Positions 12,024 to 50,544 of a stretch of DNA of 64,000 bases are shown here, one piece after another. The notes beneath the pieces are model-generated. The model was given only the letters and a program-made list of their open reading frames with translations, did no database searches and was not told where the DNA came from. The number at the start of each line of letters is the position of its first letter. Position 1 is the first letter of the stretch. The position numbers were made by a program, and so were the translations under genes. This stretch comes from a virus, in UHGV virus genome UHGV-0026213. The stretch is one strand, 5' to 3'.

Positions 12024-12989
12024 TTATTGCGGAGGTGATGTCGGACCATGTTTACCTTGGTGAATGTGAACGCTAAAGGTAATACCGGAAATAATGGCAT
12101 CTTTAACCGTAAAGACACCCACACCTTCACCCGTACCACCGTATTTGAAGTTCTTAGCAACTTCCAAATTACCGGTGAACATCGCTTCCTTCCCTTCTTG
12201 TTTAAAGTTCGGCGTTTTAAACGTTGTCGAACTGCCCGCTTCTGTTAACCAGGTTTGTGTTTTAAACGTAACGGAACTCGCTGCTTCCGTATTGCGGACT
12301 TCGCATTTTTCATTAATCGTTTTCGTTTCCAGGTTAATAGAACGCTTTGAATAAATGAACGCATCTTCTTTGTTGATGTTCACTTTTGAAAGCATCGCAT
12401 TCTCAAACCCGAGATCATCTTCAACCGAGTTAATGTAATACTTGTTTCCTTTATGGTCAACGCACTGCCACGTACCGTTTGCATTATCAAACTGAAACAA
12501 CCACGCCGCTTTCTCGCCATTCACCATACTCGTTCTTAGCGTGATATGTTTGTCAATCGTCGAAACGTTCAACACATACGCATTGGACAAGTCATCCGCC
12601 ATTTGGTTTTCAGGGTCAGCCGACCACGCATAAACCGCATCTTCTAATCGCTTAACGTTAGCGAAGTTCAGATCAATCCAAAAATAAATATCGGTTTTCC
12701 CCAAACGTAACAAGATAACGTAATCTTCTCGTTTAACGTCAGGGGAATTAATTCGGTTGGAGTTAAACTTCCACCACTTTGCTGTTATCGTGTTACCCGT
12801 CTTAATGGTTAGGTTATCTGTTGCACCAGATGTTTCGTGCGTCTTTTCAGTTGCTGAAGAAACAGATTGCACCACGGTAGGGTTAGCAAAGTTGGTTTCA
12901 ATTGGTATCACTTTTACCCGATCTGTACCACGGGGTTTGTCTTCCGCGACGATACCAATTGAGAAAAAATCAACACTGGATTTCTCCAT
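12024..12989 (-). CDS. Putative tail or baseplate protein (321 aa)
   Basis: Long minus-strand ORF heading the leftward cluster; beta-rich Ser/Thr/Asn composition and C-terminal VHIHQGKHG His motif. Function is inferred from context only. Confidence 0.4.
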   Translation of the reverse strand: MEKSSVDFFSIGIVAEDKPRGTDRVKVIPIETNFANPTVVQSVSSATEKTHETSGATDNLTIKTGNTITAKWWKFNSNRINSPDVKREDYVILLRLGKTDIYFWIDLNFANVKRLEDAVYAWSADPENQMADDLSNAYVLNVSTIDKHITLRTSMVNGEKAAWLFQFDNANGTWQCVDHKGNKYYINSVEDDLGFENAMLSKVNINKEDAFIYSKRSINLETKTINEKCEVRNTEAASSVTFKTQTWLTEAGSSTTFKTPNFKQEGKEAMFTGNLEVAKNFKYGGTGEGVGVFTVKDAIISGITFSVHIHQGKHGPTSPPQ

Positions 12990-13410: not shown

Positions 13411-14148
13411 ATGAGAGAATTATTAGACGATATCTTTACCAACACCAGTTTAGAACTTTCTTCTACGGTGGTTAACGAACTAATAGGGCAAACCCAACCT
13501 GCTAAGTTAATCGATGTTGGAACAATTAAACCTGAAGATTATCCAGACAGTGACGTTATCGACTGTATGATTGACGAATACGTGATAGGAAGTTACGCCA
13601 ACCGCGTCTTCTTTGTTATTAATACCGAAACCAGTGTCATGTTAATCTATAAGTTGATCAGTGATGCCGAACTTGAAGTTGTGGCTGACCACATTCGTCT
13701 TCTTGCGAACACACCTACTAGTATCGCTGATGTGCTTATTGGGAACGGTTGGGCTTTACCACCACTATTCTCTTACTTCCCTCTGTTTAGAAATGGGATA
13801 GGGTTACTCCGAAATGCAGAAAATCTTCCCGATAACGTCGAGTTATCACTGCTTGGACCCGGCATCGATCTTTGTCCATTAGAAGACGAGGGCACGCTAT
13901 ATGGTTTGCGCATCTATGTTTCTGTGTTAAACGGATACCGCGTTATTGAACTAATTGCATCCGACTTAGCAAAACAGATCCCAGATGTGGAAACGATTTC
14001 TAAAGCCACCCACCTGGTTGAGATTAACTCAGATGATCCCTTATTGAAATATCACGAGAAAATTGATCTTCGTAAAATCGCCACGATGAGAGGGTGGGGT
14101 TGTGCTGAGATTACGAAGGACTATCTGCTGTTAATTAAAACCGCGTAA
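13411..14148 (+). CDS. Hypothetical protein, member A of a tandem paralog array
   Basis: C-terminus MRGWGCAEITKDYLLLIKTA weakly resembles the GW..QLLF tail of the next three genes. Confidence 0.5.
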   Translation: MRELLDDIFTNTSLELSSTVVNELIGQTQPAKLIDVGTIKPEDYPDSDVIDCMIDEYVIGSYANRVFFVINTETSVMLIYKLISDAELEVVADHIRLLANTPTSIADVLIGNGWALPPLFSYFPLFRNGIGLLRNAENLPDNVELSLLGPGIDLCPLEDEGTLYGLRIYVSVLNGYRVIELIASDLAKQIPDVETISKATHLVEINSDDPLLKYHEKIDLRKIATMRGWGCAEITKDYLLLIKTA

Positions 14149-14177
14149 TTAAGAAAACCGAAAAAGGAGAATATACC

Positions 14178-14732
14178 ATGTTTCAAACTGAACTGAAAAA
14201 TGAAATTATCCAAACCCTTGAAAAGGGCGTAGGCGAACATTTCTTTGTCCGTCCTTATACCGTACTGACCAATACCATTATTCAGCCTGGTGCGATGATA
14301 GTAGGGGTAAGTGTACAAGCTGTAGAGGAAACCCCGCTGCGTCGTAACATCACACGTAAAACCCATATCCCATTTAAAACAGGTTTTACAGATTACCTTC
14401 AGAGCTTACTGGGGGATAGCGCTTGGAAAACAGGCAGCTTCTTCCACGAAGGGAAGACTTCCACGCTGGTTTATAAAGAGAGCACCAAGTATCTGGTTGA
14501 TTTTCTCTTAGCGCGTCAGTATACTTTCTTTCCAACCCCTACTGACTGCACCCCAGACAACCCAGGTAAGTTATTAAACCAAAGCGAAGCCGAGGCACTC
14601 TTTACAAGACTTCGGAATGAACAGTGCGATGTTGACGACTGGGAAACGTTGATCGCGGTCGCTAAAGCCCACGGTTGGTATACCGTACGTAAAATCGGCC
14701 AGCAGCTGTTGTTCTTAGCTTACCCTGCTTAA
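14178..14732 (+). CDS. Hypothetical protein, paralog family member B
   Basis: SD AAGGAG upstream; C-terminal HGWYTVRKIGQQLLFLAYPA. Confidence 0.6.
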   Translation: MFQTELKNEIIQTLEKGVGEHFFVRPYTVLTNTIIQPGAMIVGVSVQAVEETPLRRNITRKTHIPFKTGFTDYLQSLLGDSAWKTGSFFHEGKTSTLVYKESTKYLVDFLLARQYTFFPTPTDCTPDNPGKLLNQSEAEALFTRLRNEQCDVDDWETLIAVAKAHGWYTVRKIGQQLLFLAYPA

Positions 14733-14761
14733 GTAACGAAAAAACCTAAAGGAGAGTAAAA

Positions 14762-15913
14762 ATGCGAAATATTATTTCTAAACCAGGACATGCCAAGATC
14801 CTAAAAGAACTGATGGACAGATGCTATAATCGGACTTGGTCACTACCAAGCTTAACCATCGAATCTTCATTACAACGTGAGTTGTTTGGTTATAACTTGG
14901 GCTGCTGTGTACTTACTGAATACAATGAGATTATCGCACCTGTCGATGTCTGTACTTACGATGAAGAAATTGAAGGTTACAAGTTCGCGGTTTACACAAA
15001 TTGTGGACTAAATTACCGTAAACTCGTTGTTAGGGAAAAGAGTAGCAACCGGAAGATTATGTTTAAGGTCTTCCCAAGTGGTAAAGTCAGTAATTTATGT
15101 CTTCAGCTTGAGAAAGTGCCCTTTCACGGTGCAGCCATTTTAACTAAACCAGAACTCCTGTTATTAAGCGGGTTAATTGGCTTTGAAGTAAAAACCATCA
15201 AAGTTGAGCAGGAACTTACACGAAACGATTTCGGCTCAACTTGGTACGAAAGTTTCTTCCGCTACGAAATGTTAAGTGATAAAGCTATCAAACTCACTTA
15301 CCGTTCTACCGACGATATCGTTTACCACATTTTAATTAGCGGCGAACCCCACCAGATTATTGAAGACGAAGGAGAAAAATCAGTGTGCACCTTAAAAGAT
15401 GAATTAACTGATTTTGTTAACAAAATTGATAACGTGGGTATCAGTGAATTATTGTTCCCGATACAGCATCCAGAGTTGCTTGACGAGAAATCTGAAAACG
15501 TGGTTATGGGTGTGCATTTACTTCCTGACCATCTTGCTATCTACCGTACACTTTCTAAAAATCAACTTAAAGTGTGGTGCCTGTTAAAAGACCTTTTAAC
15601 AGAGGCGGGGTGGTCGTGTAGTGTAGATGTTAACTGTGAAGGAGTTGCGTTCTTCATCACAATAGGCAATCGTAGTTTTTCTGTCGATTTACCTACTCGC
15701 AGCTATTACAATTTCTTCCCGACCGCAGAAGGACGTACTGAAAAAGAACCCGCATTACTGCTCAGTGCTGAGGAGTCCAATGCGTTAATGACGAAACTAA
15801 AAGCGAAAGACGAGAAGCTGGATGCTTTACATCTACCTATAATCGGGAAAGACTACGGTTGGGCTGACGTGCAAAAATACGGCAGCCAACTGTTGTTTGT
15901 TGCCAACATTTAA
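14762..15913 (+). CDS. Hypothetical protein, paralog family member C
   Basis: SD AAAGGAG upstream; C-terminal YGWADVQKYGSQLLFVANI. Confidence 0.6.
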   Translation: MRNIISKPGHAKILKELMDRCYNRTWSLPSLTIESSLQRELFGYNLGCCVLTEYNEIIAPVDVCTYDEEIEGYKFAVYTNCGLNYRKLVVREKSSNRKIMFKVFPSGKVSNLCLQLEKVPFHGAAILTKPELLLLSGLIGFEVKTIKVEQELTRNDFGSTWYESFFRYEMLSDKAIKLTYRSTDDIVYHILISGEPHQIIEDEGEKSVCTLKDELTDFVNKIDNVGISELLFPIQHPELLDEKSENVVMGVHLLPDHLAIYRTLSKNQLKVWCLLKDLLTEAGWSCSVDVNCEGVAFFITIGNRSFSVDLPTRSYYNFFPTAEGRTEKEPALLLSAEESNALMTKLKAKDEKLDALHLPIIGKDYGWADVQKYGSQLLFVANI

Positions 15914-15980
15914 TAAGTGAAACTACACTTTCTCTAACTGCCGCGCTTTAGTCGCGGCTTTTGTTAAGAAGGAAATAGAA

Positions 15981-16754
15981 ATGAAAGTCCATTTAGACGA
16001 TATCTTTAAAACCGAACCGTATATGATCGAAGGCCCGCTATCATCACTACTATTTGCCGATAGATTAGATCGTACGCTGCAATTACAATCGGTCGAATCT
16101 GCACCCGTTGATGATGTAGAGCGTTACGAGCGCATCAACCATACGCGGGGTGAGTATCGTCGCTATAAGCCAAATTCACTAAGCATCAAGCTCTGGCAAG
16201 TGAGCACAGGTAAAGTATTAACTTATCGCGCTGTTGGTAGTTATTACATTCAACAAGCCAAGGAATGGCTAGAGAAAGTTAAAGAACTGAACTTCGATCT
16301 ACTGAGCAAAAAACTGCGCGATCATAACGCCAGTTTGCCGATACGTAATTATTTCTCCACGATTGAAAATAGTCGTTGTTTCGTTTCTCGTGAATCCACG
16401 ATATTACCTGGGGATGATGTTCAGACGACACTAAAAGATGTGGTTGTGAAGAAAATCTTTCATGAATCTGAACACGTTGGGTTCCGTATCTACTTAACAC
16501 ACAAGAGACCATTTACCGTTATTCACGTTGATACCGCACCCGAAGGCTCAGCGGTTATTCGAGAACTTCCTGATGCTCGAGACCGTTGCCCTAATGAGCC
16601 GCTTTATTTAATGTCAGGAACAAAATCAACCGCGTTGATGTCCCGTTACAGCATGTTAGATGTTGTTGACGCTGCTATGAAACTAGGTTGGAAAGAAGTG
16701 CAGCAACATGGTAAACAATTGCTGTTTATTGCCGATGTAAAACTTAATCAATAG
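15981..16754 (+). CDS. Hypothetical protein, paralog family member D
   Basis: C-terminal LGWKEVQQHGKQLLFIADV. Confidence 0.6.
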   Translation: MKVHLDDIFKTEPYMIEGPLSSLLFADRLDRTLQLQSVESAPVDDVERYERINHTRGEYRRYKPNSLSIKLWQVSTGKVLTYRAVGSYYIQQAKEWLEKVKELNFDLLSKKLRDHNASLPIRNYFSTIENSRCFVSRESTILPGDDVQTTLKDVVVKKIFHESEHVGFRIYLTHKRPFTVIHVDTAPEGSAVIRELPDARDRCPNEPLYLMSGTKSTALMSRYSMLDVVDAAMKLGWKEVQQHGKQLLFIADVKLNQ

Positions 16755-16766
16755 TGAGGTGGTACC

Positions 16767-17345
16767 GTGTACCGATTAATAGAAATGCGAAAAGACGTTT
16801 GGTTGGAAAACCTCGTCGATGGGGAGCTTGAGGGAATAGAGCTTTCCTTACCAGAAAGAGCGGACACGGTATTGGTCTTTCTGATAAAACAGGCAGCGAA
16901 TGAACCGGTAGGAATCTTCAGCGTGGACTATAAAGACCCACGAGGGATTCATTTACGGAACATTTGCAGTGGTTTAGAAAGCTTACCGGCTAATCCGTTC
17001 TTAAACTACGCAAAACGTAAACTCCAGCCTGGACAACATCTCTGGGTAGTTCTAGCGCCTGATACACGCATTATACGTGACGACCTGACTGCGTTTGTCC
17101 AAGCAACGAAAGTCAGTTTGTACAATCCTAATGCGGATCGTACCGATATGCCGTTTACAATCACCTTAGAAGACGATGGAACGCAAGAGGGTATTGAGGC
17201 AATTACGGAATTAGTAAACTCTTATCCGGTAGCGTCTATTGAGTTAGAAAACCCAAACCGATTACCGTTGGGTGATTTACTCGAATGGATTGAGCTGAAT
17301 ACCGAGTTCCTCATTAACTCCCGGCAGTACCGGTTCGATGTATAA
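16767..17345 (+). CDS. Hypothetical protein (192 aa)
   Basis: GTG start with GAGGTGG SD; followed by terminator hairpin GGTGGGGG..CCCCCCACC plus T-run. Confidence 0.5.
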   Translation: MYRLIEMRKDVWLENLVDGELEGIELSLPERADTVLVFLIKQAANEPVGIFSVDYKDPRGIHLRNICSGLESLPANPFLNYAKRKLQPGQHLWVVLAPDTRIIRDDLTAFVQATKVSLYNPNADRTDMPFTITLEDDGTQEGIEAITELVNSYPVASIELENPNRLPLGDLLEWIELNTEFLINSRQYRFDV

Positions 17346-17348
17346 CAT

Positions 17349-17385
17349 CGGTGGGGGTTTACCCCCCACCTTTTATTTTTTTGTT
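17349..17385 (+). terminator. Intrinsic terminator
   Basis: GGTGGGGGTTTACCCCCCACC hairpin followed by TTTTATTTTTTT. Confidence 0.6.
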
Positions 17386-17404
17386 CGTTAATATTAAAAA
17401 TAAT

Positions 17405-17428
17405 TTCAGATATATATTACTTAGGTGA
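17405..17428 (+). promoter_or_regulatory. Promoter-like motif TTCAGATATATATTACTTAGGTGA (copy 2)
   Basis: Second copy of the 13018 motif, preceded by an AT-rich tract and about 50 nt upstream of the 17477 gene. Confidence 0.45.
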
Positions 17429-17476
17429 GAGTTACGATTAACTCTTTATACATTAACGCCATGAAGGAGCAAAACA

Positions 17477-17938
17477 ATGAAAATCTTCACTTCCTTTTTA
17501 ATCGCCCTTTTCGTAATCGGTTTCAATACTGCACACGCCGCTATCAATAACTGGGAACAAATACAAAACCCTGGCCAGGCAGTTTACGAAATTGAAGACA
17601 CCGCCGGAAACGGACTGTCTATCAACTGTGACACAGAAACTGCGAATCGCAAATTTTACGGTCGCATGGTTTGGTATTACGGTGAACCCGTAGGTGCAAC
17701 TAACGCGGAAGATAACACGTTGGATATTGTCGTAAACGGCAAGACCTATAACATCCCTACCGTGGACGGTAGTGACAAAGCAGAACACGCTTGGGTTGCT
17801 TTCGTTAATGCTATCGGTAATGCCAAAACTTTCAGTGTGAGTATCAATGGTAACGACACCGCTAACTTTACCGTAGAAGGCGAACGTCTGTCTGAAACTT
17901 TCTTCCAGAACTGTGGACACACCCGTCCTAACAAATAA
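17477..17938 (+). CDS. Small secreted protein (153 aa)
   Basis: N-terminal signal peptide MKIFTSFLIALFVIGFNTAHA; SD GAAGGAG. Confidence 0.55.
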   Translation: MKIFTSFLIALFVIGFNTAHAAINNWEQIQNPGQAVYEIEDTAGNGLSINCDTETANRKFYGRMVWYYGEPVGATNAEDNTLDIVVNGKTYNIPTVDGSDKAEHAWVAFVNAIGNAKTFSVSINGNDTANFTVEGERLSETFFQNCGHTRPNK

Positions 17939-17960
17939 CTATTAGTCTTTTTTAGAGTGC

Positions 17961-18353
17961 GTGAAAATGAATATCAGAACTATACTTTATATCATCATTA
18001 TTTTCTGTGCGGTCGGAATTACTGGCACTTATGCTTTCGGTGATTCGGATGTCCGCTATTACGAACCGGCTCCTGACTCACCGATTATCAACCCGGATGA
18101 GACGCCTGCGTTAATGCGCAGTTTCGGTAAACTGCAAGTTTATCGTTTAGTGCGTGGTGAAACCTGTACGGGTTTACTCATTGCTGACACCCGTGCACAA
18201 GTCTACCAACGTCTAACCGATATCGCCTGCGAACAACCAAAAGTCATGTCGGTTAGTATCCATCCGCTATCAGTTGGTAACTATACCGCTGTGGACTTCT
18301 TTCACAACGCCGAATTAATCGGGCGCGTTACCTTAAATCGTCCTGCCGAATAA
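17961..18353 (+). CDS. Small secreted or membrane-anchored protein (130 aa)
   Basis: Hydrophobic N-terminus ILYIIIIFCAVGITGTYA. Confidence 0.5.
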   Translation: MKMNIRTILYIIIIFCAVGITGTYAFGDSDVRYYEPAPDSPIINPDETPALMRSFGKLQVYRLVRGETCTGLLIADTRAQVYQRLTDIACEQPKVMSVSIHPLSVGNYTAVDFFHNAELIGRVTLNRPAE

Positions 18354-18371
18354 TCTAAAGGAGTAGTTATA

Positions 18372-18857
18372 ATGAAACGTTTACACACATTGATGTTCTT
18401 TCTGGTTTTCTTGTTTATCGGTACCACGCCAACTGTAGATGCGGCCTCCGTAGACGAATTGCTTACCTGCGATGGAAACGCTTGGGAAGGTCAGCCAAAT
18501 GCGTGCCCAAACATCAACGACTTGTACGATACCGATAAGTCGTTTAAAGCCGTTGTTGATAAAACATTAGACCCTGTGGGGCTGGATGGTATGTTCGGCT
18601 CTAAAGGTTACATGGATGGTCCTGGCGGTAACATGTATCCGGTAAACATCAACAACAAAATCTGGATTGAAAGTGGCGGTTGTAAAGCTAACGCTTGTGG
18701 TTGGGAATACATCGTAACGCTATACAACCCACACACCAAGAAACTCGTCGGCTATTACTACAACATCGACCCCGGTTATCTGATTTGGTTCGGTGATATC
18801 GGTGTTGCTGAATTCGCTTACCTGGTTAAGAAGTACGTAGAACAATCTAAATACTAA
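18372..18857 (+). CDS. Small secreted Cys-containing protein (161 aa)
   Basis: Signal peptide MKRLHTLMFFLVFLFIGTTPTVDA; SD AAAGGAG. Confidence 0.55.
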   Translation: MKRLHTLMFFLVFLFIGTTPTVDAASVDELLTCDGNAWEGQPNACPNINDLYDTDKSFKAVVDKTLDPVGLDGMFGSKGYMDGPGGNMYPVNINNKIWIESGGCKANACGWEYIVTLYNPHTKKLVGYYYNIDPGYLIWFGDIGVAEFAYLVKKYVEQSKY

Positions 18858-18868
18858 GGACTTTTATC

Positions 18869-19279
18869 ATGAAAACTATCATTAATACTCTTCTCATTGC
18901 AATTGCTGTTCTGTTCTCTGTCAACGCTACAGCAAAGACAATACAGTTGCCAGACAATATTAAGTACGTCAATAGCACCGATGATTTCTATTGTACGGAA
19001 ATTGACGGCTTGTACTGTCAGGCAAAGAGCCTGTTTAAATACAAAGGTAGCAGATACGTATTCATCGTTGAGCAAGGTGGTGCCTGGTGCTACGACAGCC
19101 CAATGTCCGTACTCAACCTCGAAACGTGGAAGGCTCAGCGTCTCGAATACAACGACAAACGTCTGTGCTCTGGTAATAACAAACCATTCTTCAAAGTCGT
19201 AGATGGTGTGCCAATGGTAGGGATATTAGACACTTCGGAAAAACCTATCGTTGTAGCTATGGATAAACTTAAAATTTAA
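18869..19279 (+). CDS. Small secreted Cys-containing protein (136 aa)
   Basis: Signal peptide MKTIINTLLIAIAVLFSVNATA. Confidence 0.55.
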   Translation: MKTIINTLLIAIAVLFSVNATAKTIQLPDNIKYVNSTDDFYCTEIDGLYCQAKSLFKYKGSRYVFIVEQGGAWCYDSPMSVLNLETWKAQRLEYNDKRLCSGNNKPFFKVVDGVPMVGILDTSEKPIVVAMDKLKI

Positions 19280-19289
19280 GGAGTAACTC

Positions 19290-19679
19290 ATGCGTCTCGT
19301 CTGCGTTTTAGCATTCTTCTTCTCCCTGAGTGTAGCAGCATCTACTCAAGTTAACGATTTACTGCTAACCCCAAACAACAATACCGATTACCAGTACAAT
19401 CCTCCTGGGTTTGAAGTTTGTGAAGTCGGTGAAACAATCTGCCAAGAAGTCGGCGCAGACGGGCGCTATATTCTGGTAAAAGCTGATGGTGGCACAATGT
19501 GTCCCGCAGGTTATTACTTTCTGCTCGATTCCGTCGCAAGAGAGGTTCTTCCTATCACCACAAAAACGTGCGACCCTACTGTTGTCTTAACTCTCGCTAA
19601 AAGCAAATCTCGCGACCGTTATCTGATTGTTATCGAAGAACGGGGCAAGATGGCTGGTGCTATCGAATTAGATCATTGA
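19290..19679 (+). CDS. Small secreted Cys-containing protein (129 aa)
   Basis: Signal peptide MRLVCVLAFFFSLSVAAS; followed by terminator hairpin. Confidence 0.55.
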   Translation: MRLVCVLAFFFSLSVAASTQVNDLLLTPNNNTDYQYNPPGFEVCEVGETICQEVGADGRYILVKADGGTMCPAGYYFLLDSVAREVLPITTKTCDPTVVLTLAKSKSRDRYLIVIEERGKMAGAIELDH

Positions 19680-19745
19680 GTGTAGTCTTGGCCCCGATAC
19701 GTTCGGGGTCCTTTTTACGACATGTTTACCTAAAGGAGTATTAAA

Positions 19746-20222
19746 ATGCAATTATCTAACGTTTACCAAGCTGCGCAATTTCATCATGACCTGTCGGCTA
19801 AACCTGAACAAATTCGCCACAACTTAACGGTGGCCTGGAAACTGCTGCGTATCGCCGAAGCCTCCCGCCTTAACGATCAGTCGACGATTATCGAGACGGT
19901 GCGCACACTACATCCAGTCGACCTGGAAACAATCTGGACCTTTGATTTAACCCGAATTTATCACCGTCGTTTTAATGCGGCAGTTGATGCAATCCGTCCT
20001 TACTTTCATCACCTGCGAACAACACGCGAAAATGACACCGCACTTGAGTGGGTATTGGTACAAAGCGTATGGAGCGACTACATTTATCTCCTTTCTTTAG
20101 AGACGGGTGAATGTATCGTTGCTAACGAAGTTTTTTCAAGTAACGCAGAAATGTATCGTTCCTTCGCGACGATTAAAGGTGAAACACAACCTATTTTATC
20201 ACTCACGCACTTAGGGCTGTAA
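19746..20222 (+). CDS. Hypothetical protein (158 aa)
   Basis: SD cassette TAAAGGAGTATTAAAATG; terminator downstream. Confidence 0.5.
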   Translation: MQLSNVYQAAQFHHDLSAKPEQIRHNLTVAWKLLRIAEASRLNDQSTIIETVRTLHPVDLETIWTFDLTRIYHRRFNAAVDAIRPYFHHLRTTRENDTALEWVLVQSVWSDYIYLLSLETGECIVANEVFSSNAEMYRSFATIKGETQPILSLTHLGL

Positions 20223-20278
20223 TTAGCCCGGCCCCGTTTACTCGGGGCTTCTTTTTTTGATCTAAAAGGAAAGACCAG

Positions 20279-20887
20279 ATGAACGAAATTACATTAGTTC
20301 GTTTTCTTGAAGCGATGCAAAATGCAGAGCGCTTTTCACATACGCCTTTATTCATTGACTTAATGGAAGAAGAAGTAGAGGGCTTCCTGGCGTACCCTCG
20401 CTTACGGGAATATTTTAAACGCAAAACACCGACTGCTTACGAAAAGTTGGTTTACGCGCTTGAGAACAGTACAACATTGTTAACGTCACCTTTTAAGGCG
20501 TTGGAGGCTTTAGACCCGGCTGGTACCACAAGTATCCCACAACGTGTTGTGTTCTACTATATCGACCACGATCGAATTAAAGCCGATGTTGTTAACTGGA
20601 TCTCTGAAAACGCAGTTCCTGAAACACGCACTTTTAATCTCTGTCCTGTAGAAGAAGGGTGGAAGGTCGGTAGCCACTATTCTTACCCGTACCAATCCAT
20701 TAAATCGCCGTTTTTATATCCGGTTTATCTGGATGATGTTACACCTGGAAATTGTATCCCGGTAACAAATCTGATCTGTACATTGACAATGGAAGTCTTA
20801 GCCACAAAGGCGGGACAGGTTTGGGTAGAAAACACGAAGAACGTCGATTATTGGACTTCAATGGGTTATCACCTGTACACCAAATAA
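20279..20887 (+). CDS. Hypothetical protein (202 aa)
   Basis: ORF bounded by terminator hairpins; no recognisable motif. Confidence 0.5.
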   Translation: MNEITLVRFLEAMQNAERFSHTPLFIDLMEEEVEGFLAYPRLREYFKRKTPTAYEKLVYALENSTTLLTSPFKALEALDPAGTTSIPQRVVFYYIDHDRIKADVVNWISENAVPETRTFNLCPVEEGWKVGSHYSYPYQSIKSPFLYPVYLDDVTPGNCIPVTNLICTLTMEVLATKAGQVWVENTKNVDYWTSMGYHLYTK

Positions 20888-20965
20888 CGTTTGGGAGAAC
20901 CTTCGGGTTCTCCCTTTCTTTATTTTTTTCTTTTTACACCACACTCCGTCTTTATGGAGGTGGGT

Positions 20966-23470
20966 ATGCTAAAAGTTGAACGCATTATACTCAAAGGTTT
21001 TACGGGGATGGGGTTACATGAAATTGAAACCTTCGATTTCACTATCCAGTCTCCGACAACAATTATCCTGGGTGGGAACGGCTGCGGGAAAACCAGTCTA
21101 CTGTCTGTGTTCTTACCCTTAGCACCGGCTAAAACAGAATTTAGGGACGGCGGTTCTTACACAAACTACTGTTTAGTTGGCGATCAACGCTATCGTTTCA
21201 AAGTTGCTCGTAAAGGCAACTCATTGGTTTGCGATATTGAGAACTTGACTACGGGGGCAAAGATCGTCGAGCAAGGTAATGCGAAAGTCTACAACTCCCG
21301 TGTTGAAGAAATCACAGGTATTACGAAAGAGATTAAAGAATTATTAAATGGTGAGGTGTTGTTAACCGATGCGGGAACTGAATTACGCCGCAAATGGTTT
21401 TACCGTTTAAGTACCTCTGACCTCACTTACGCGTTAGGGTTTTATCAACGTTTACGTAAAAACCTTACTGCCTTAAATGGGGGTATTGAAATCACCAGCC
21501 GTAAAATCGCCGAATTGCGGACGCGTGTTATTGAGAACGAGGAAGAACGGCAGCAGTTGGCGACGAGATTAAAAGGTTTGGAATCGGATTTACGTGAACT
21601 GAACCGAGAAATCGAACAGTTGCCAGGATTAAATCGTGCCGTCACCATCGAAACAATCCAAGCGTTATTAAACAGCTTGGGCCCAACCATCGACGCAATA
21701 TTACAACATCGTGGTGGACTGCCTACTGATGAACAGATACTGGCCGCGCGACAAAACGAAGCGACGGCCCGCGAAGCTGTCGTGTCTACTGAAACAGAGG
21801 TATCGATGTTGAATAAAGACTTGTCGTTATTGATGGATGAGTCGACACGACAGGACTACCTGATGCGGAATCACGAAGGTCTCAAGAATACGCTGGCACG
21901 TTTACGTGAGTTACTTACCAAATGGGACACTGAACATCTCTTTCCGGGTCTATTTAACGATAACGTCAATTTAGACCAACTTCGTGCGGCTACCGACGCG
22001 CGTGTTTGGGGACAACGGTTAGGAACAACGCTGGACGCAATTCATTCGACCGAAAAACTCAATGTTTTGGAAGAACGGCTTCTGGTGATGGATCAAAAAA
22101 CCGCCGGGTTGCGGGATAGACTCCAGCGAGTGGAGAACGTTTTACAGAATTTAAATCACGAACGTAACCACTACTTAGAAACAGCGGAAGTGGATTGTCC
22201 GCAGTGTCGGTTTAAGTTTCGACCAGGCGTTACGCGTTCTTTGCCTGAACTTGAGTCTTCGATTCGTGGACAGCAACAGCAGCGCACGGAACTGCAAACG
22301 CAGTTAGAGACCTTATTACGCGATCGTGTTGAATTAGAATCTGATGTAACTTATATGCGGCAGGTTCGTGAGATTGTACTGACGTATTCAAAGGACCCGG
22401 TATTGAGCATGTTCTTTAAGCGTTTGCAAGAACGTAACGTTTTCACAGAATCACGCGAACAGTTCGGGAGTCTATGCGCAGCGTTTGACAGCGAGTTGTA
22501 CTCTGCTATTGAGTACCATGAAACCCGTCAACGGTTAGTGAAGGCGGAAAAAGAATGGCAGGATGCCGTGGCGACCGTTGGTAACGTCGATGGTGCTTTA
22601 CAACAGAAAATCGCCTTCCAACAGTCACGATTAGGTAAAGCCACAGAAATGCTCTCAATGCGTCGTAGAGAGCACGAACTGGCTAACACGACACTTACCT
22701 ATCTGGTGAATGTTAAACGTGCTGTAGATGATTTCAGTGCGTTATTCGAACGGTTAGAGAGTGATGTTAAGGTTACGTTGACAAATACGGTCGTCGAGGA
22801 ACTCTTACGTGCACGAGAAGGGAAGCTGGATGCTTTTACAACCGCACGCGAACGTTATCGTCAGATGGAAAATGAATTGAATCAGCTCAACAGTTTGGAA
22901 CGCGAACTTGCTGACTTACAAGCCCAGCAGTTCAATAACAAACTGATGATTCAAGCCTTCTCTCCAGAAAAGGGTGTACTTAGAAAGTATTTTTACAACG
23001 CTATCGTTAGAATCACAGAGTTAATGACGCGTTATATCGAACAAGTCTGGACGTACCCCATGCGCGTTATGCCTTGTGACCTCACTGACGGTGATTTGGA
23101 TTATACTTTTCCTGTCCAGCTAAAAACGCATCCTGAGCCTGTTCCTGACGTGCGTAAAGGGTCTAAGGCGCAGCGTGCGATATTTAATCTGATGTTCAGG
23201 CTGACTGCGTACAAAGCGCTGATGTTGCATCAGTTTCCATTGCTTTTGGATGAGCCTTCGGAAGGCATGGATGAGGAGCACCGTAACAACCTGGTCGGCT
23301 TTATTAAAACGTTAGCAAACTCGGGAGAATTTTCTCAACTGTTGGTAGTCTCCCACGAAGCCGAGGTTCATTCTAAACTTAATGAAGCATCGTACTGTGT
23401 CATCGAACCGGAAGGGGTGACATTGCCTGCGGTGTATAACGAAGGAGTAAAAATTGTTTATGCAAACTGA
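20966..23470 (+). CDS. SbcC/Rad50/SMC-family ATPase
   Basis: N-terminal Walker A ILGGNGCGKTSLL, long central coiled-coil region, C-terminal Walker B-like PLLLDEPSEGMD then VVSHE. Start refined to an internal ATG with GGAGG SD; the ORF-track start at 20891 overlaps the upstream terminator. Confidence 0.6.
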   Translation: MLKVERIILKGFTGMGLHEIETFDFTIQSPTTIILGGNGCGKTSLLSVFLPLAPAKTEFRDGGSYTNYCLVGDQRYRFKVARKGNSLVCDIENLTTGAKIVEQGNAKVYNSRVEEITGITKEIKELLNGEVLLTDAGTELRRKWFYRLSTSDLTYALGFYQRLRKNLTALNGGIEITSRKIAELRTRVIENEEERQQLATRLKGLESDLRELNREIEQLPGLNRAVTIETIQALLNSLGPTIDAILQHRGGLPTDEQILAARQNEATAREAVVSTETEVSMLNKDLSLLMDESTRQDYLMRNHEGLKNTLARLRELLTKWDTEHLFPGLFNDNVNLDQLRAATDARVWGQRLGTTLDAIHSTEKLNVLEERLLVMDQKTAGLRDRLQRVENVLQNLNHERNHYLETAEVDCPQCRFKFRPGVTRSLPELESSIRGQQQQRTELQTQLETLLRDRVELESDVTYMRQVREIVLTYSKDPVLSMFFKRLQERNVFTESREQFGSLCAAFDSELYSAIEYHETRQRLVKAEKEWQDAVATVGNVDGALQQKIAFQQSRLGKATEMLSMRRREHELANTTLTYLVNVKRAVDDFSALFERLESDVKVTLTNTVVEELLRAREGKLDAFTTARERYRQMENELNQLNSLERELADLQAQQFNNKLMIQAFSPEKGVLRKYFYNAIVRITELMTRYIEQVWTYPMRVMPCDLTDGDLDYTFPVQLKTHPEPVPDVRKGSKAQRAIFNLMFRLTAYKALMLHQFPLLLDEPSEGMDEEHRNNLVGFIKTLANSGEFSQLLVVSHEAEVHSKLNEASYCVIEPEGVTLPAVYNEGVKIVYAN

Positions 23471-23639
23471 TTGGTTCCGTCGTATTGTGGATGCGGCAGG
23501 GTTTGGCTTCATGTCCATTCTAGCGGTTCTTTATGTCATGTTTTGTGTGGTGATGATTTTATGGGTAGTTTCATCTTATCTGATTAAACTATCGTGGGGT
23601 TCAATTTGGCGTCAACGCGAATGCGAATGGCGGAATTAG
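23460..23639 (+). CDS. Small hydrophobic membrane peptide
   Basis: One predicted transmembrane helix (FGFMSILAVLYVMFCVVMILWVV); overlaps the 3' end of the ATPase gene. Confidence 0.35.
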   Translation: MQTDWFRRIVDAAGFGFMSILAVLYVMFCVVMILWVVSSYLIKLSWGSIWRQRECEWRN

Positions 23640-23959
23640 GAGAGGGAATATGGTTGTAGGGGTTCTGTTAACACTTGGCTCGTTGTGGTTAATTGGTAAA
23701 GGTTTAAACTTGCTGATTAAACGTCACCGTTGGGCGTTTGAAGATTAACCACCCAAATAATCCAGAAGATACCCTCCGGTGTGAGGGTATTGACAGGAGC
23801 AGAAAATGACCACGATAAACGCTACGAATGTAGCGATATCCGCACTATACGACGCGGAACTTTCATGGGGTGGATTGATAATCACCACAGCCATATTAGC
23901 CGCTGCGGCTTTCGTCATCGCGCGTTGGTTTTAATTTTACTTTTTTGCGTCTCTAAGGT

Positions 23960-24439
23960 TTGCAAATGGAAATTTATTTGTTGAACGCATCTTCTAAAGT
24001 CGGTGAGCGTCAAGCTGCCGATTTACTCAAACTACACTACCGTTACTTAGACCACCAGGCCACGTTACTGAAAATCAAAATGTCGGTGCCGAAGTTAAAT
24101 GCGCGACAGCTGATCGAAGGTAACTGCATAGTTCTGGTGTATCAGGATGATGTCGCGGTAGGATACTGTAGTTATCGGAATCGTAACGGTTCACTTAAGA
24201 TACGTTCGGTATACGTGCTCCCAGACTATCGTCAACGGGGTGTAATGAAAGAGATTTTCAAAGCAATTGCAGCTATGCGAAATGTAAAGAAGCAAAAGAG
24301 TATTTCATCCGACGCGGCTATCAGGCGGTTTACTCACGCGATCGTGAGTGGGTCGATTTTAGCAAAACATTCTAAAAACAATAAAGCTCTCTTGGCGTAC
24401 CTCACTATGAGTGTGAGAAATTTACGTCAGGAGAGCTAA
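23960..24439 (+). CDS. GNAT-like acetyltransferase fold protein (tentative)
   Basis: VGYCSY...VYVLPDYRQRGVMKEIF resembles GNAT motif A; weak. Confidence 0.35.
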   Translation: MQMEIYLLNASSKVGERQAADLLKLHYRYLDHQATLLKIKMSVPKLNARQLIEGNCIVLVYQDDVAVGYCSYRNRNGSLKIRSVYVLPDYRQRGVMKEIFKAIAAMRNVKKQKSISSDAAIRRFTHAIVSGSILAKHSKNNKALLAYLTMSVRNLRQES

Positions 24440-24441
24440 TT

Positions 24442-24687
24442 ATGTTAAAATCGTGCGGAGTGGGTGGTTTGGATACGAGTATTTGTTGGAAGGAATACGA
24501 ACGTGCGAAAGCGTTCTTACAACATCCCAATGTGGGGACAATAGGTAAGGTCTGTTTCGGCAAACCTTCACTGACGGCCTGTATCCAAGGGGCTTTAGGG
24601 ACGTTGCCACCCGAATCACATTTCGAGCCTGAGGAGAATATGAATGTTCACAGAGAACCCATCAATTTACGGCATACCGTTGAATGA
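24442..24687 (+). CDS. Hypothetical protein (81 aa)
   Basis: SD CAGGAGAG upstream of ATG. Confidence 0.35.
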   Translation: MLKSCGVGGLDTSICWKEYERAKAFLQHPNVGTIGKVCFGKPSLTACIQGALGTLPPESHFEPEENMNVHREPINLRHTVE

Positions 24688-25036: not shown

Positions 25037-25597
25037 TTGTCGAGCTATCAATCGGCGGTACACGTTTTAATACTACACATCAACTCCGGGCGTTTCGTTA
25101 TGTTAACGGTACGTAAAGAATCTGAAATTGGTAACGATCTTTTTAATGCGCCCGAAGACTATAAAGTCGTTACCATTAACTGCGTAGGAGCGATGGGACG
25201 TGGCATTGCACTCGCGTGTCGTGAACGCTACCCCAACCTTTATCAAGATTACCGTAAGCGGTGTCGTGAAGACGAAATTAAGATTGGAAGCGTTTACGTT
25301 TACTCTGACGAAAAGTGTATCTTGCTCCCCACGAAAACACATTGGCGTTTAAAATCCCAGGTTTCTTATGTTACTGCGGGCATTACCGCACTAGCGGATT
25401 GTGCTGAGGATCTGGATACCAGCGTTGCTATCCCTCCATTGGGAATGGCAAACGGGTGGTTAGATTCCTGGGAAAGACAAGAAATCTTTTTGTGGCTTTA
25501 CAAAAAACTTGAACCGAGGAGGCAACGCTACACGTTATACTTACCTGTTAAGTTGTATCAAGAAGCAGAGTCATTAATTCCAAACTCTTTTAAATAG
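25037..25597 (+). CDS. Macro-domain protein, TARG1/DarG/Poa1p-like (predicted ADP-ribose hydrolase)
   Basis: VVTINCVGAMGRGIALACRERYP and AIPPLGMANGWLDSWE resemble the two signature segments of TARG1-type macro domains. Confidence 0.5.
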   Translation: MSSYQSAVHVLILHINSGRFVMLTVRKESEIGNDLFNAPEDYKVVTINCVGAMGRGIALACRERYPNLYQDYRKRCREDEIKIGSVYVYSDEKCILLPTKTHWRLKSQVSYVTAGITALADCAEDLDTSVAIPPLGMANGWLDSWERQEIFLWLYKKLEPRRQRYTLYLPVKLYQEAESLIPNSFK

Positions 25598-32167: not shown

Positions 32168-32902
32168 ATGACCTACCCAAAAATTGTCACCCCGTACACA
32201 CCGACGCTGGTTATTGGCGCTGATGCTGAAACCAAATCATTACGTCCCGATGCTTATCTGTTAAGTGCAGGTTTAGTGGCTTTTGACGTCCCTACATTGA
32301 AAATGGTCGGTTCCTCATACATCCGTATTGATCCTAACGATCCTAAAGCAAAAGCCATTTTCCACGAAGACCCACAAACCGTCGGTTGGTGGGAAGGTAA
32401 AGGCGAACCCGAATACGCACCGTCTCGTGAAGCCTATGCGGAAGCATGGGGTGGGACGACAGCATTGCCAGACGCGCTGTGGGCGATGCAAAAATGGCTC
32501 GGGGAGATTACCGCAAAACATGAGTTTGTGATTACCATGCGTGGTCCTGACTTTGATGCACCGATTTTCATGAACGCGTTCGCACAATGTGATATTCCGC
32601 CAGGGAAATTCCGTAAATTTAGTGCACTGGATAGCGATCGTACCGCAGAACGGTTAGCCTTTGCATTTGGTTTCGAGCCTGACTTAACCGTAGAGCAAAT
32701 TTACTGGACACGCGGCAAGCCCGCTTTTGAGCACCACGCAATGTGGGATGCAGCAAAAGAAGCCTACACCACGGCACGTATTTACCACCTCGCTTTGGTC
32801 ACACGCCAATACGGGTTTGAACGCGCCAAAGCCTGTCACGAAGAACTGAAAACAGGCGAGTATGTTGCGCCGCAGATTCGTGATCAATTAACCAGGGATT
32901 AA
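32168..32902 (+). CDS. DEDDh-type 3'-5' exonuclease (DnaQ-like), putative
   Basis: LVIGADAET (D-x-E), MRGPDFDAPIF and HHAMWDAAKEAY (H-x4-D) resemble Exo motifs I-III. Confidence 0.5.
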   Translation: MTYPKIVTPYTPTLVIGADAETKSLRPDAYLLSAGLVAFDVPTLKMVGSSYIRIDPNDPKAKAIFHEDPQTVGWWEGKGEPEYAPSREAYAEAWGGTTALPDALWAMQKWLGEITAKHEFVITMRGPDFDAPIFMNAFAQCDIPPGKFRKFSALDSDRTAERLAFAFGFEPDLTVEQIYWTRGKPAFEHHAMWDAAKEAYTTARIYHLALVTRQYGFERAKACHEELKTGEYVAPQIRDQLTRD

Positions 32903-32904
32903 GA

Positions 32905-34425
32905 ATGAAGAACGTTGATGTTGCAGTAATTTACACGGATGGTAGCCATTTGACCTCCCCGCTCGGTACAGGAGCGGGGATTCATGGATACTTATTTAAT
33001 CGTGAAACGATTGAGGATGGTCGGGTTTATCGCCATCCCTCTATTCCCGAGGGGATTACGACGTCAGGATACCGCCAGATAAACAAGGATGAAAAACTTC
33101 CGCCTTTACCAGAAACCGTGGAGTTTATTGACGGTGTTGTGCCTGTACCAAAAATGTCGCACTCCGACGTTGCAGAACTCGTGGCTTTCCTGACCGTTTT
33201 CGAACATGCACCTTTCGTTGCCAAAAACTATGTTATCTATATCGACGCATCTTACGTTGTCAACACGTATAACGATTGGATTGATGGTTGGGCTGCACGA
33301 GGATGGCGACGTGCAGACGGTACGCCCATTGCGAACTTGGAATTAATCCAACGGATGTGGGAGGTTAAACAGCGGTTAAAGAAAGAAGGGAAAGGTGTTC
33401 GTGTCCTTAAAATTAAAGGGCACTCAGGACGCTATGGAAACGAACGTGCCGACGAGTTAGCACGGAAGGGTTCAAGTATCTCGGCACGAGGCGATGGGCT
33501 AGACTATACACCGTATTGGTCAAAAGACGAGATGCCTGAGGAAGATCAGCAACCAGAAGTTGTTGGTGAGGGTGTCAATTTGTCTGCCTTTCCCGATATC
33601 TGTGTTACGAAGTTCTGTTACCCGATGGTGAACGAACCCCATCCCACGGTTACGGTTAACGGTAATAAACTTTATTACATGTTCGGTGGGAACCATGCAA
33701 AACAGAAGGACGATATCGTCTTCGTTGGTAAGTACATTCCAGACGCACAATTCTGCGTAATGTTTACCAAAGAACCGTGGGATAACGTATACGAGTTGGT
33801 AAATACCCACTCTGCGAAAGCGTGGGAAGGGGTGCCCCGTTTACGTCGATTTGATCCCATCGCCGTTGTATTTAACTTATTCGTAAAGCGTAAAAAGTTC
33901 GCAGAAGCCGCAGCTAACGGTATTCCTATCGATCGGATGCATTTTAGCGAAGACAAAAACCTGTGGATGTTTGAAGATCTTTCGATTACACGAATTCTTC
34001 GTCCCGCGTTATTGTCTTATCGCTGCATTACGATTCGTGATGAGCTTGCAGGTTGGTTACGCGATGCCATGGAGGGGAAAAACTCAGTCGTAATGAACGA
34101 CATTACTGACCTGCTTTACGATGAGAAAGGTAAGCCGAAGAAAGACTTTTATCGTAACGTAGATAAAGGTTTTGACGTAACCATCCATATCCCTGGTAGC
34201 AAAAACAAGGTTAAAACCATCCTTACTCGTGGTATCGACATACCGACGCGTACGGAAATCAACCGTATGAAAGAACCAGAAGGACGATTCTACGTGGCGG
34301 TACGCCGTCCAGAACGGCAGTATATCGAATATGCGTTGGTTTATATCGGGGAAAAATATCATGGGTTGTGGTGCGGTTATTATTCAAACAAACGAATATT
34401 GACGGATAAGGAGCTTGAATGCTGA
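32905..34425 (+). CDS. RNase H-like protein with long C-terminal extension (506 aa)
   Basis: VAVIYTDGS, VAELVAF and KIKGHSGRYGNERADELARKG resemble the RNase HI catalytic motifs in the first ~190 aa. Confidence 0.6.
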   Translation: MKNVDVAVIYTDGSHLTSPLGTGAGIHGYLFNRETIEDGRVYRHPSIPEGITTSGYRQINKDEKLPPLPETVEFIDGVVPVPKMSHSDVAELVAFLTVFEHAPFVAKNYVIYIDASYVVNTYNDWIDGWAARGWRRADGTPIANLELIQRMWEVKQRLKKEGKGVRVLKIKGHSGRYGNERADELARKGSSISARGDGLDYTPYWSKDEMPEEDQQPEVVGEGVNLSAFPDICVTKFCYPMVNEPHPTVTVNGNKLYYMFGGNHAKQKDDIVFVGKYIPDAQFCVMFTKEPWDNVYELVNTHSAKAWEGVPRLRRFDPIAVVFNLFVKRKKFAEAAANGIPIDRMHFSEDKNLWMFEDLSITRILRPALLSYRCITIRDELAGWLRDAMEGKNSVVMNDITDLLYDEKGKPKKDFYRNVDKGFDVTIHIPGSKNKVKTILTRGIDIPTRTEINRMKEPEGRFYVAVRRPERQYIEYALVYIGEKYHGLWCGYYSNKRILTDKELEC

Positions 34426-50224: not shown

Positions 50225-50544
50225 TGACTGTGAACGACAATATAAAGAAAAAGATTGACGAAATCATAAGCGTCAGTTTAGATAGAATCGAATTAATTCC
50301 CGAAACTAAGGAGATCAAATATTACGTTCCTGCGGACGAACTATTTCCAGGTCTTCTTAGAATCTCACCAAAAAAGGTTGAAGAGGCTAAACGGCAATTC
50401 GAAGTTCGTGGCCTTAAGGTTGACATTGTTAACAAAAAACATTTCCAAGTAACGTATAGTCAGGAAAACATTATATTTAGTCCTGAACAAGCGCAACGTA
50501 ATTTAGATATTTTAACGAAACGAATGGGGAATAATAACAAATGA
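50224..50544 (+). CDS. Hypothetical protein (106 aa)
   Basis: Start overlaps the upstream stop; its stop overlaps the thyA start. Confidence 0.4.
   Translation: MTVNDNIKKKIDEIISVSLDRIELIPETKEIKYYVPADELFPGLLRISPKKVEEAKRQFEVRGLKVDIVNKKHFQVTYSQENIIFSPEQAQRNLDILTKRMGNNNK

Follow-up and report, generated by a model that had tools for sequence, protein, structure and literature searches.

The SbcC-like ATPase gene of a phiKZ-like jumbo phage and the location of its SbcD-like partner

Does a Rad50/SbcC-like ATPase whose gene has no Mre11/SbcD-type gene beside it work with a nuclease encoded elsewhere, or does it have another role? The question is raised by a gene at 20966..23470 on the plus strand of the virus genome UHGV-0026213, in the 64,000-nucleotide stretch analysed here (the window). 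The gene encodes an 834-amino-acid product that the original prediction described as an SbcC/Rad50-like ATPase with a split head and a long coiled coil, leaving both of these alternatives standing. We find that the ATPase is probably the Rad50/SbcC subunit of a phage Mre11-Rad50 end-processing complex, of the kind formed by SbcCD and T4 gp46/gp47.

The ATPase and its relatives

The gene lies in a stop-to-stop open reading frame (ORF) at 20891-23470 (+). The N-terminus MLKVERI is common to 17/17 ATPase homologues in the alignment and the sequence GGAGGTG stands just 5' of ATG 20966 (Table 1), which together identify this ATG, the start proposed originally, as the true one. The protein matches phrog_77, the 'SbcC-like subunit of palindrome-specific endonuclease', at an E value of 2e-91. 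A profile search of the PDB returned eight matches, six of them Rad50 chains and the other two an ABC transporter and colicin Ia, and among solved structures Rad50 was the best sequence match for both halves of the head. A candidate reading as a tape-measure protein, that is, a long helical ORF behind small genes, was dropped once the protein proved to carry ATPase motifs and to match the SbcC-like family.

The bipartite ABC head is complete, with Walker A in its N-terminal half and the signature, Walker B, D-loop and H-loop in its C-terminal half (Table 1); residue invariance was judged on an alignment of 18 homologues with 30-87% identity. Around the CxxC motif, H402, F418, P420 and G421 are also invariant. 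The AlphaFold model (mean predicted local distance difference test, pLDDT, 80.7) has an N lobe (residues 1-150), a C lobe (672-832) and two helical arms of ~250 residues (154-405 and 426-664, pLDDT mostly 70-90), joined mid-protein by a non-helical hairpin (406-425) with the CxxC inside it. The CxxC is thus predicted to be a Rad50-type zinc hook between the arms. The family match, the invariant motifs and the model bear out the split head and long coiled coil that had been predicted. The top Foldseek match of the model was PDB entry 7zr1 (E 2e-17), the C. thermophilum Rad50 of an Mre11-Rad50-Nbs1 complex, followed by Smc5/6, condensin, Lamassu LmuB, MukB and JetC.

A megablast search with 4.5 kb of the window (20000-24500) found no match in a collection of 50,697 phage records. 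A tblastn search of the same collection with the ATPase protein found it in 290 phage records, all of them phiKZ-like jumbo phages. Its closest relatives are in the Erwinia phages Asesino (gp207), Stratton and phiEaH2, with 71% amino acid identity, and identity to the Salmonella SPN3US group is 58%. Remoter relatives are found in phiKZ, Goslar, Noxifer, RAY-like Erwinia phages, EL and 201phi2-1, and in many phages of Aeromonas, Vibrio, Klebsiella, Serratia and Ralstonia. Coverage was 99-100% in Noxifer, Goslar, RP31 and Asesino, and the alignment with PHIKZ165 spanned residues 1-828 with 27.5% identity over aligned pieces that amount to 53% of the query. Judged by its sequence relationships, the window is from a phiKZ-like, nucleus-forming jumbo phage, an uncultivated Chimalliviridae-type phage of enterobacteria with a genome of ~225 kb, and its ATPase gene is orthologous to phiKZ orf165, which belongs to the Chimalliviridae core. 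In phiKZ, orf165 is a conserved gene in which no transposon insertions were recovered (PMC12676376), and antisense knock-down reduced plaques for both orf165, 'SbcC-like nuclease' (+), and orf065, 'nuclease' (++) (PMC12571901). The ATPase gene of phiKZ-like jumbo phages appears to be essential.

Metagenome contig ERZ27287186:k141_659670 (224,967 bp) encodes an identical ATPase protein at 102,564-105,068, and the 90%-identity cluster of the protein has 285 members, many of them in isolate assemblies of Salmonella enterica, E. coli and Shigella. Proteins of this phage belong to clusters with hundreds of nearly identical members, drawn from isolate assemblies and metagenomes and often on single contigs of 220-228 kb. 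Such large clusters, found despite the empty megablast result, suggest a widespread uncultivated phage related to SPN3US and Erskinevirus that accompanies enterobacterial isolates, either in a carrier state or as contamination.

The presence of Lamassu LmuB chains among the fold matches (E ~1e-11), together with a match of the PADLOC LmuB model to residues 2-803 (E 2.9e-18), raises the alternative that the protein is an LmuB-like or other SMC-like ATPase of defence or counter-defence, acting in phage-phage or phage-host conflict. LmuB, Smc5/6, condensin, MukB and JetC do share with it an SMC-like fold of ABC head and long coiled coil. We nevertheless hold a defence role to be very improbable, since the SbcC-like phage family is by far the better sequence match and Rad50 the top fold match. 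The ATPase also differs from LmuB and the SMC proteins in the CxxC hook at its apex, where they have a hinge domain. It has no adjacent kleisin or LmuA gene, and its neighbours include no LmuA-type effector and no PADLOC match of any kind. Unlike accessory defence genes, it is also a core gene in a conserved position, free of transposon insertions in phiKZ (PMC12676376).

Table 1. Positions of features in the window, and of the SbcD-like and SbcC-like genes in the 12 phage genomes compared
Feature	Position	Strand	Basis or remark
Upstream neighbour, 202 amino acids	20279..20887	+	phrog_9964 (function unassigned) sole match
Terminator-like hairpin	20893..20924	+	9-bp stem, 6 G-C pairs, T-rich tail; consensus scan
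Shine-Dalgarno-like GGAGGTG	20956..20962	+	3 nt before ATG 20966; read from sequence
ATPase gene, orthologue of phiKZ orf165 / SPN3US gp186 / Asesino gp207	20966..23470	+	phrog_77, tblastn, PDB profile, Foldseek
Walker A / P-loop GGNGCGKT, residues 36-43	21071..21094	+	G36, N38, G39, G41, K42 invariant
CxxC zinc-hook motif C411-P-Q-C414 (predicted), coiled-coil apex	22196..22207	+	C411, C414 invariant
Signature-like motif GSKAQ, residues 732-736	23159..23173	+	G732, S733, A735, Q736 invariant
Walker B LLLDE (759-763) and D-loop D769	23237..23275	+	P758, L759, D762, E763, D769, E770 invariant
H-loop H797	23354..23356	+	S796, H797 invariant
Short ORF 1, 61 amino acids	23454-23639	+	best 19-residue Kyte-Doolittle window 2.8
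Short ORF 2, 32 amino acids	23650-23748	+	best 19-residue Kyte-Doolittle window 1.8
Short ORF 3, 42 amino acids	23806-23934	+	best 19-residue Kyte-Doolittle window 2.1
GNAT acetyltransferase, downstream neighbour	23960..24439	+	Acetyltransf_1 32.7 bits (cut-off 20.7); phrog_3810 E 1.6e-21
SPLA5c (Salmonella, SPN3US group), SbcD-like; SbcC-like	33,135-34,283; 178,935-181,442		annotated 'SbcD-like subunit'
Stratton, SbcD-like; SbcC-like	21.8 kb; 170.2 kb		
SPN3US, SbcD-like; SbcC-like	21.0 kb; 168.9 kb		
pEa_SNUABM_38, SbcD-like; SbcC-like	20.3 kb; 158.6 kb		
phiKZ, SbcD-like; SbcC-like	55.1 kb; 169.1 kb		orf065; orf165
Noxifer, SbcD-like; SbcC-like	46.9 kb; 153.7 kb		
Aeromonas D3, SbcD-like; SbcC-like	40.6 kb; 128.7 kb		
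pEt-SU, SbcD-like; SbcC-like	7.8 kb; 98.3 kb		
N1M2, SbcD-like; SbcC-like	28.5 kb; 116.9 kb		
phiKp_32, SbcD-like; SbcC-like	19.3 kb; 107.5 kb		
HPP-Temi, SbcD-like; SbcC-like	258 kb; 133 kb		
KpLz_1_41, SbcD-like; SbcC-like	283 kb; 181 kb		

The SbcD-like gene of phiKZ-like phages

A tblastn search with the SbcD-like protein of SPLA5c found exactly 290 phage records, a number equal to that for the ATPase. The counts per genus for ATPase and SbcD-like protein are almost equal too, with full agreement for Pseudomonas (81/81), Erwinia (62/62), Serratia (21/21), Aeromonas (19/19), Klebsiella (16/16) and Ralstonia (13/13). A distance of 88-148 kb separates the two genes in 12/12 genomes, these being the genomes present in both tblastn listings (Table 1). 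A CxxC hook where SMC proteins have a hinge, and the parallel distribution of the Mre11-like gene, put the ATPase in the Rad50/SbcC branch.

Within the window we found no counterpart. No Metallophos or phosphoesterase match was present among 40 scanned window ORFs, the SbcD-like protein gave a best tblastn E value of 0.84 against the 64 kb, and the SbcD-like family profile gave a best E value of 0.78 against 624 stop-to-stop segments from six frames of the whole window, with positive controls at 1e-135 to 1e-156. The absence of an Mre11/SbcD gene next to the ATPase, as first noted, therefore holds for the whole window. It is the expected result, as the SbcD-like gene would lie ~100-150 kb away in a genome of ~225 kb.

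The window's own phage lineage can be followed into assemblies. One cluster of SbcD-like proteins (P0059, 248 members) has 72% identity to Stratton gp42 and occurs on contigs of 222-228 kb in Salmonella, E. coli and Shigella assemblies, and the kinds of sample match those of the ATPase cluster. Members of the ATPase cluster and of the SbcD-like cluster are found together in a single S. Braenderup assembly (locus-tag prefix E1L24), and the longest contig is 224,988 bp for an ATPase variant and for an SbcD-like variant alike. These observations make a strong case that the SbcD-like partner gene is present in the lineage. Of the two alternatives left by the original prediction, a partner encoded elsewhere is supported by the 290 records, the 12 genomes and the lineage assemblies, and another role for the ATPase is not needed.

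The SbcD-like protein itself is divergent. With Pfam alone, the SPN3US-type protein had no match at E<=0.01 and a weak one to Metallophos (E 0.03). We aligned seven sequences, from phiKZ, Noxifer, RAY, a Ralstonia phage, an Aeromonas phage, Stratton and SPLA5c, and found D22-x-H24 (motif I), G57-D58 (II), H180 (IV) and H212-x-H214 (V) to be invariant. Motif III, G97-T-x-x-H101-D102, is invariant as well and is a variant of GNHD with a two-residue insertion. A profile from this alignment, searched against 177,635 PDB sequences, matched Mre11/SbcD chains only. T. maritima Mre11 ranked first (E 3e-8, with ~230 residues aligned), and P. furiosus Mre11 and E. coli SbcD came next. The profile also aligned with T4 gp47 over 221 columns (E 2e-5) with motifs I-V in register. 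Proteins of the phiKZ orf065 and SPN3US-Stratton gp42 type are, on their sequence motifs, predicted to be divergent but intact calcineurin-like Mre11/SbcD nucleases.

The SbcD-like gene stands in a conserved block of its own, which in phiKZ is orf063-064-065-066-067(chmC)-068, and chmC and nvRNAP-sigma genes adjoin the locus. In every case the next gene is a conserved one for a protein of ~278 amino acids of unassigned function (phiKZ orf066), after which comes chmC (orf067), and in several phages the SbcD-like and orf066-type genes overlap or abut. In phiKZ, orf066 was also a knock-down hit (PMC12571901). If the nuclease complex has an extra subunit, orf066 may be a better candidate than the genes near the ATPase.

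The separation of the two genes has been described before. Iyer et al. reported the SbcC ATPase and its SbcD partner to be 'practically universally conserved' in jumbo phages (PMC7824862), and SbcC (ORF69) and SbcD (ORF282) lie at distant positions in phiRP12/phiRP31 (PMC5468394). In pSal-SNUABM-04, SbcD (ORF34) and SbcC (ORF189) are 'placed in distance', and this splitting was noted as a feature of phiKZ-related phages (PMC7823757). Since the split is the family norm and previously described, the unlinked genes of this phage are no oddity.

A probable end-processing complex and its alternatives

E. coli SbcCD, T4 gp46/gp47 and the archaeal and eukaryotic Mre11-Rad50 complexes are established models for the action of such an ATPase. 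By analogy with them, the zinc hook would join two ATPase chains, and ATP binding would bring the two heads together on DNA ends or hairpins. Once engaged, the heads would bring in a dimer of the SbcD-like nuclease and license it for hairpin cutting and end resection, and the resulting 3' tails would pass to a phage UvsX-type recombinase. In this way the ~225-kb genome would be repaired and undergo recombination-dependent replication, presumably within the phage nucleus. The ATPase and nuclease genes would simply be transcribed separately, and in this phage family genes of related function usually are.

The nearest counterparts of the window ATPase are phiKZ orf165, SPN3US gp186 and Asesino gp207, which have the same length (~830 amino acids), the same motifs and hook, and an unlinked SbcD-like partner. 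Nothing of substance sets the window gene apart from them, and the block of small genes upstream of it is confined to the SPN3US/Erskinevirus clade. T4 likewise has a phage Rad50-like ATPase with a CxxC hook and an Mre11-like nuclease, and the jumbo-phage pair likely shares with gp46/gp47 a role in recombination-dependent replication. In T4, ~450 bp separate genes 46 and 47 on the same strand, whereas the jumbo-phage genes are ~100-150 kb apart; gp46 has 560 amino acids against 834 in the window ATPase, whose coiled coils are much longer; and motif III of the SbcD-like protein reads G-T-P-S-H-D in the comparison with T4 gp47, which has G-N-H-D. The CxxC is mid-protein in gp46 (CPTC at 288) and in E. 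coli SbcC (CPLC at 506), as in the window ATPase. E. coli SbcCD and archaeal and eukaryotic Mre11-Rad50 also combine ABC head, coiled coil, zinc hook and calcineurin-like nuclease partner. In E. coli, sbcD and sbcC overlap in a single operon, whereas the phage genes are unlinked, and the sequence resembles cellular Rad50 little, with 13% identity in the fold alignment. The unlinked SbcC and SbcD genes are thus a real difference from the textbook systems, yet one that is known and general in phiKZ-like phages.

Several observations weigh against an end-processing complex of this kind. The Pfam SMC_N match over residues 4-808 (E 3e-8) stays under the gathering threshold, with 33.7 bits against 40, and the NCBIfam Rad50 models are far under their cut-offs (PRK01156, 41.9 bits against 847). 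The missed curated thresholds, taken with the strong phrog_77 match, indicate that the ATPase belongs to a divergent phage branch and is not a canonical cellular Rad50. A Q-loop glutamine could not be recognised, and no glutamine at residues 120-160 is invariant among the 18 homologues. The partner gene lies outside the window, and its presence in this exact genome is read from near-identical assemblies. The phiKZ knock-down phenotype is weaker for 165 (+) than for 065 (++) (PMC12571901). Finally, we infer complex formation, ATP hydrolysis and nuclear entry of either protein by analogy.

With respect to the Q-loop, residues 126-141 (window ~21341-21388) seem to have a conserved L-T134-D-A-G-T138 where the glutamine is expected. 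Aligned by eye, the pattern L-T134-x-A/x-G-T138 faces LSQGQF of E. coli SbcC and LGTAGY of T4 gp46, the latter of which it resembles, and relative to SbcC the glutamine is apparently replaced. The threonine may represent a phage-type Q-loop variant or a misalignment. With hhalign, the ATPase alignment could be aligned to E. coli SbcC in the stretch from Walker B to the H-loop and nowhere else, and to T4 gp46 in the N lobe alone (E 8e-5).

A different role was considered for the ATPase: with no nuclease at its side it would behave like an SMC protein, organising phage DNA or tethering its ends by bridging or compaction, for example in the nucleus or during packaging, and the SbcD-like gene would be independent of it. 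The two genes are unlinked in all genomes compared, the ATPase gene lies behind its own terminator-like hairpin, Smc5/6, condensin and MukB come next after Rad50 among the fold matches, and the knock-down strengths of phiKZ 165 and 065 are unequal (PMC12571901). The CxxC hook that replaces the SMC hinge is, however, a hallmark of Rad50/SbcC, the ATPase and the SbcD-like gene each occur in 290 records with matching genus counts, and Pfam and phrog scans found no kleisin- or ScpAB-like gene adjoining the ATPase. The missing linkage carries little weight, because scattering of genes is general in phiKZ-related phages (PMC7823757). We therefore consider a nuclease-free organiser unlikely. Somewhat more doubtful still is the idea that in nucleus-forming phages the ATPase has gained a job partly independent of the nuclease, for example in tethering or organising the genome within the nucleus, at which the family-wide separation, the long arms (834 against 560 amino acids in T4) and the apparently altered Q-loop might hint.

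Surrounding genes and meaning of the locus

The gene order around the ATPase is shared with Asesino (gp205-gp206-gp207-small ORFs) and SPN3US (gp184-gp185-gp186-small ORFs). In agreement with the original prediction, no phosphoesterase is encoded on either side of the ATPase: the downstream gene encodes a GNAT acetyltransferase (Table 1), and the 202-amino-acid upstream protein had no match in Pfam, NCBIfam or PADLOC. A homologue search with the upstream protein found four close relatives, and a model built from the five sequences, of medium confidence (pLDDT 71.8), had no fold match in the PDB at E<=0.001.

The upstream protein lies immediately 5' of the ATPase on the same strand, is kept with it in Asesino and SPN3US, and has as its sole match a family of unassigned function, all of which would suit a novel non-calcineurin nuclease that substitutes for SbcD. 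We think this most improbable, given that the gene precedes the ATPase in the SPN3US/Erskinevirus clade only and its product has no recognisable fold. The phages phiKZ, Goslar, Noxifer, Deimos-Minion and Aeromonas D3 also have the ATPase, and in them a divergently transcribed baseplate or structural gene takes the upstream position. Moreover, no family or fold match, to a nuclease or otherwise, was found for the protein, a terminator-like hairpin stands between the two genes, and a genuine SbcD-like gene is encoded elsewhere. Terminator-like sites are in no excess in the region (7, against 5.0 +/- 2.4 in shuffled sequence). Similar G+C-rich hairpins with T-rich tails follow both preceding genes, at 19690 and 20230.

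The upstream protein is encoded at the end of a run of ~12 small same-strand genes of unassigned function (13411-20887, +), which extends from a divergent structural or baseplate-like gene (12024-12989, -) to the ATPase. The block looks like a clade-specific insertion, since the baseplate gene directly adjoins the ATPase in the five phages named above. In some relatives, recombination genes are close to the ATPase, UvsX in Noxifer and RuvC in Goslar.

Three short hydrophobic ORFs had been predicted to follow the ATPase, and their translations and hydropathy confirm them (Table 1), with a predicted membrane-spanning segment in each. Short ORFs 1 and 3 are called by gene callers in related contigs, and short ORF 2 has an unannotated counterpart in Asesino with 55% identity. 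Downstream of the GNAT gene, 25037-25597 (+) encodes a macro-domain protein (Pfam Macro, E 6.5e-6), whose Asesino counterpart is annotated 'Appr-1-p processing protein'. The macro-domain and GNAT genes may be counter-defence or host-takeover genes.

Farther along the window, an Rv2179c-like 3'-5' exoribonuclease-domain protein (32168-32902, +; E 2.5e-11) is directly followed by an RNase H-domain protein of 506 amino acids (32905-34425, +; E 5e-21). The latter may be the counterpart of phiKZ orf155, an essential 'RNase HI domain protein' (PMC12571901). The thymidylate synthase ORF at 50541-52076 (+) has 511 amino acids against the 266 positions of the Pfam profile (E 3e-105, a single stretch at residues 2-511). 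It contains an in-frame insertion of ~210 amino acids between '...KIWDSW' and 'LGPVYGKQWR' and a second one of ~45 amino acids ahead of the 'KLSC' active-site region, neither with evident intein-like ends. The pattern 'W..MM.RC.......Y..YG.KG' in the first insertion may resemble the DNA-binding modules of homing endonucleases.

The ATPase gene is thus an ordinary, already known core gene of phiKZ-like jumbo phages, and its split layout is known too. The locus has little significance past its correct annotation, in which the window ORF would stand as the Rad50/SbcC subunit and its partner type as the SbcD-like protein of phiKZ orf065 and gp42.

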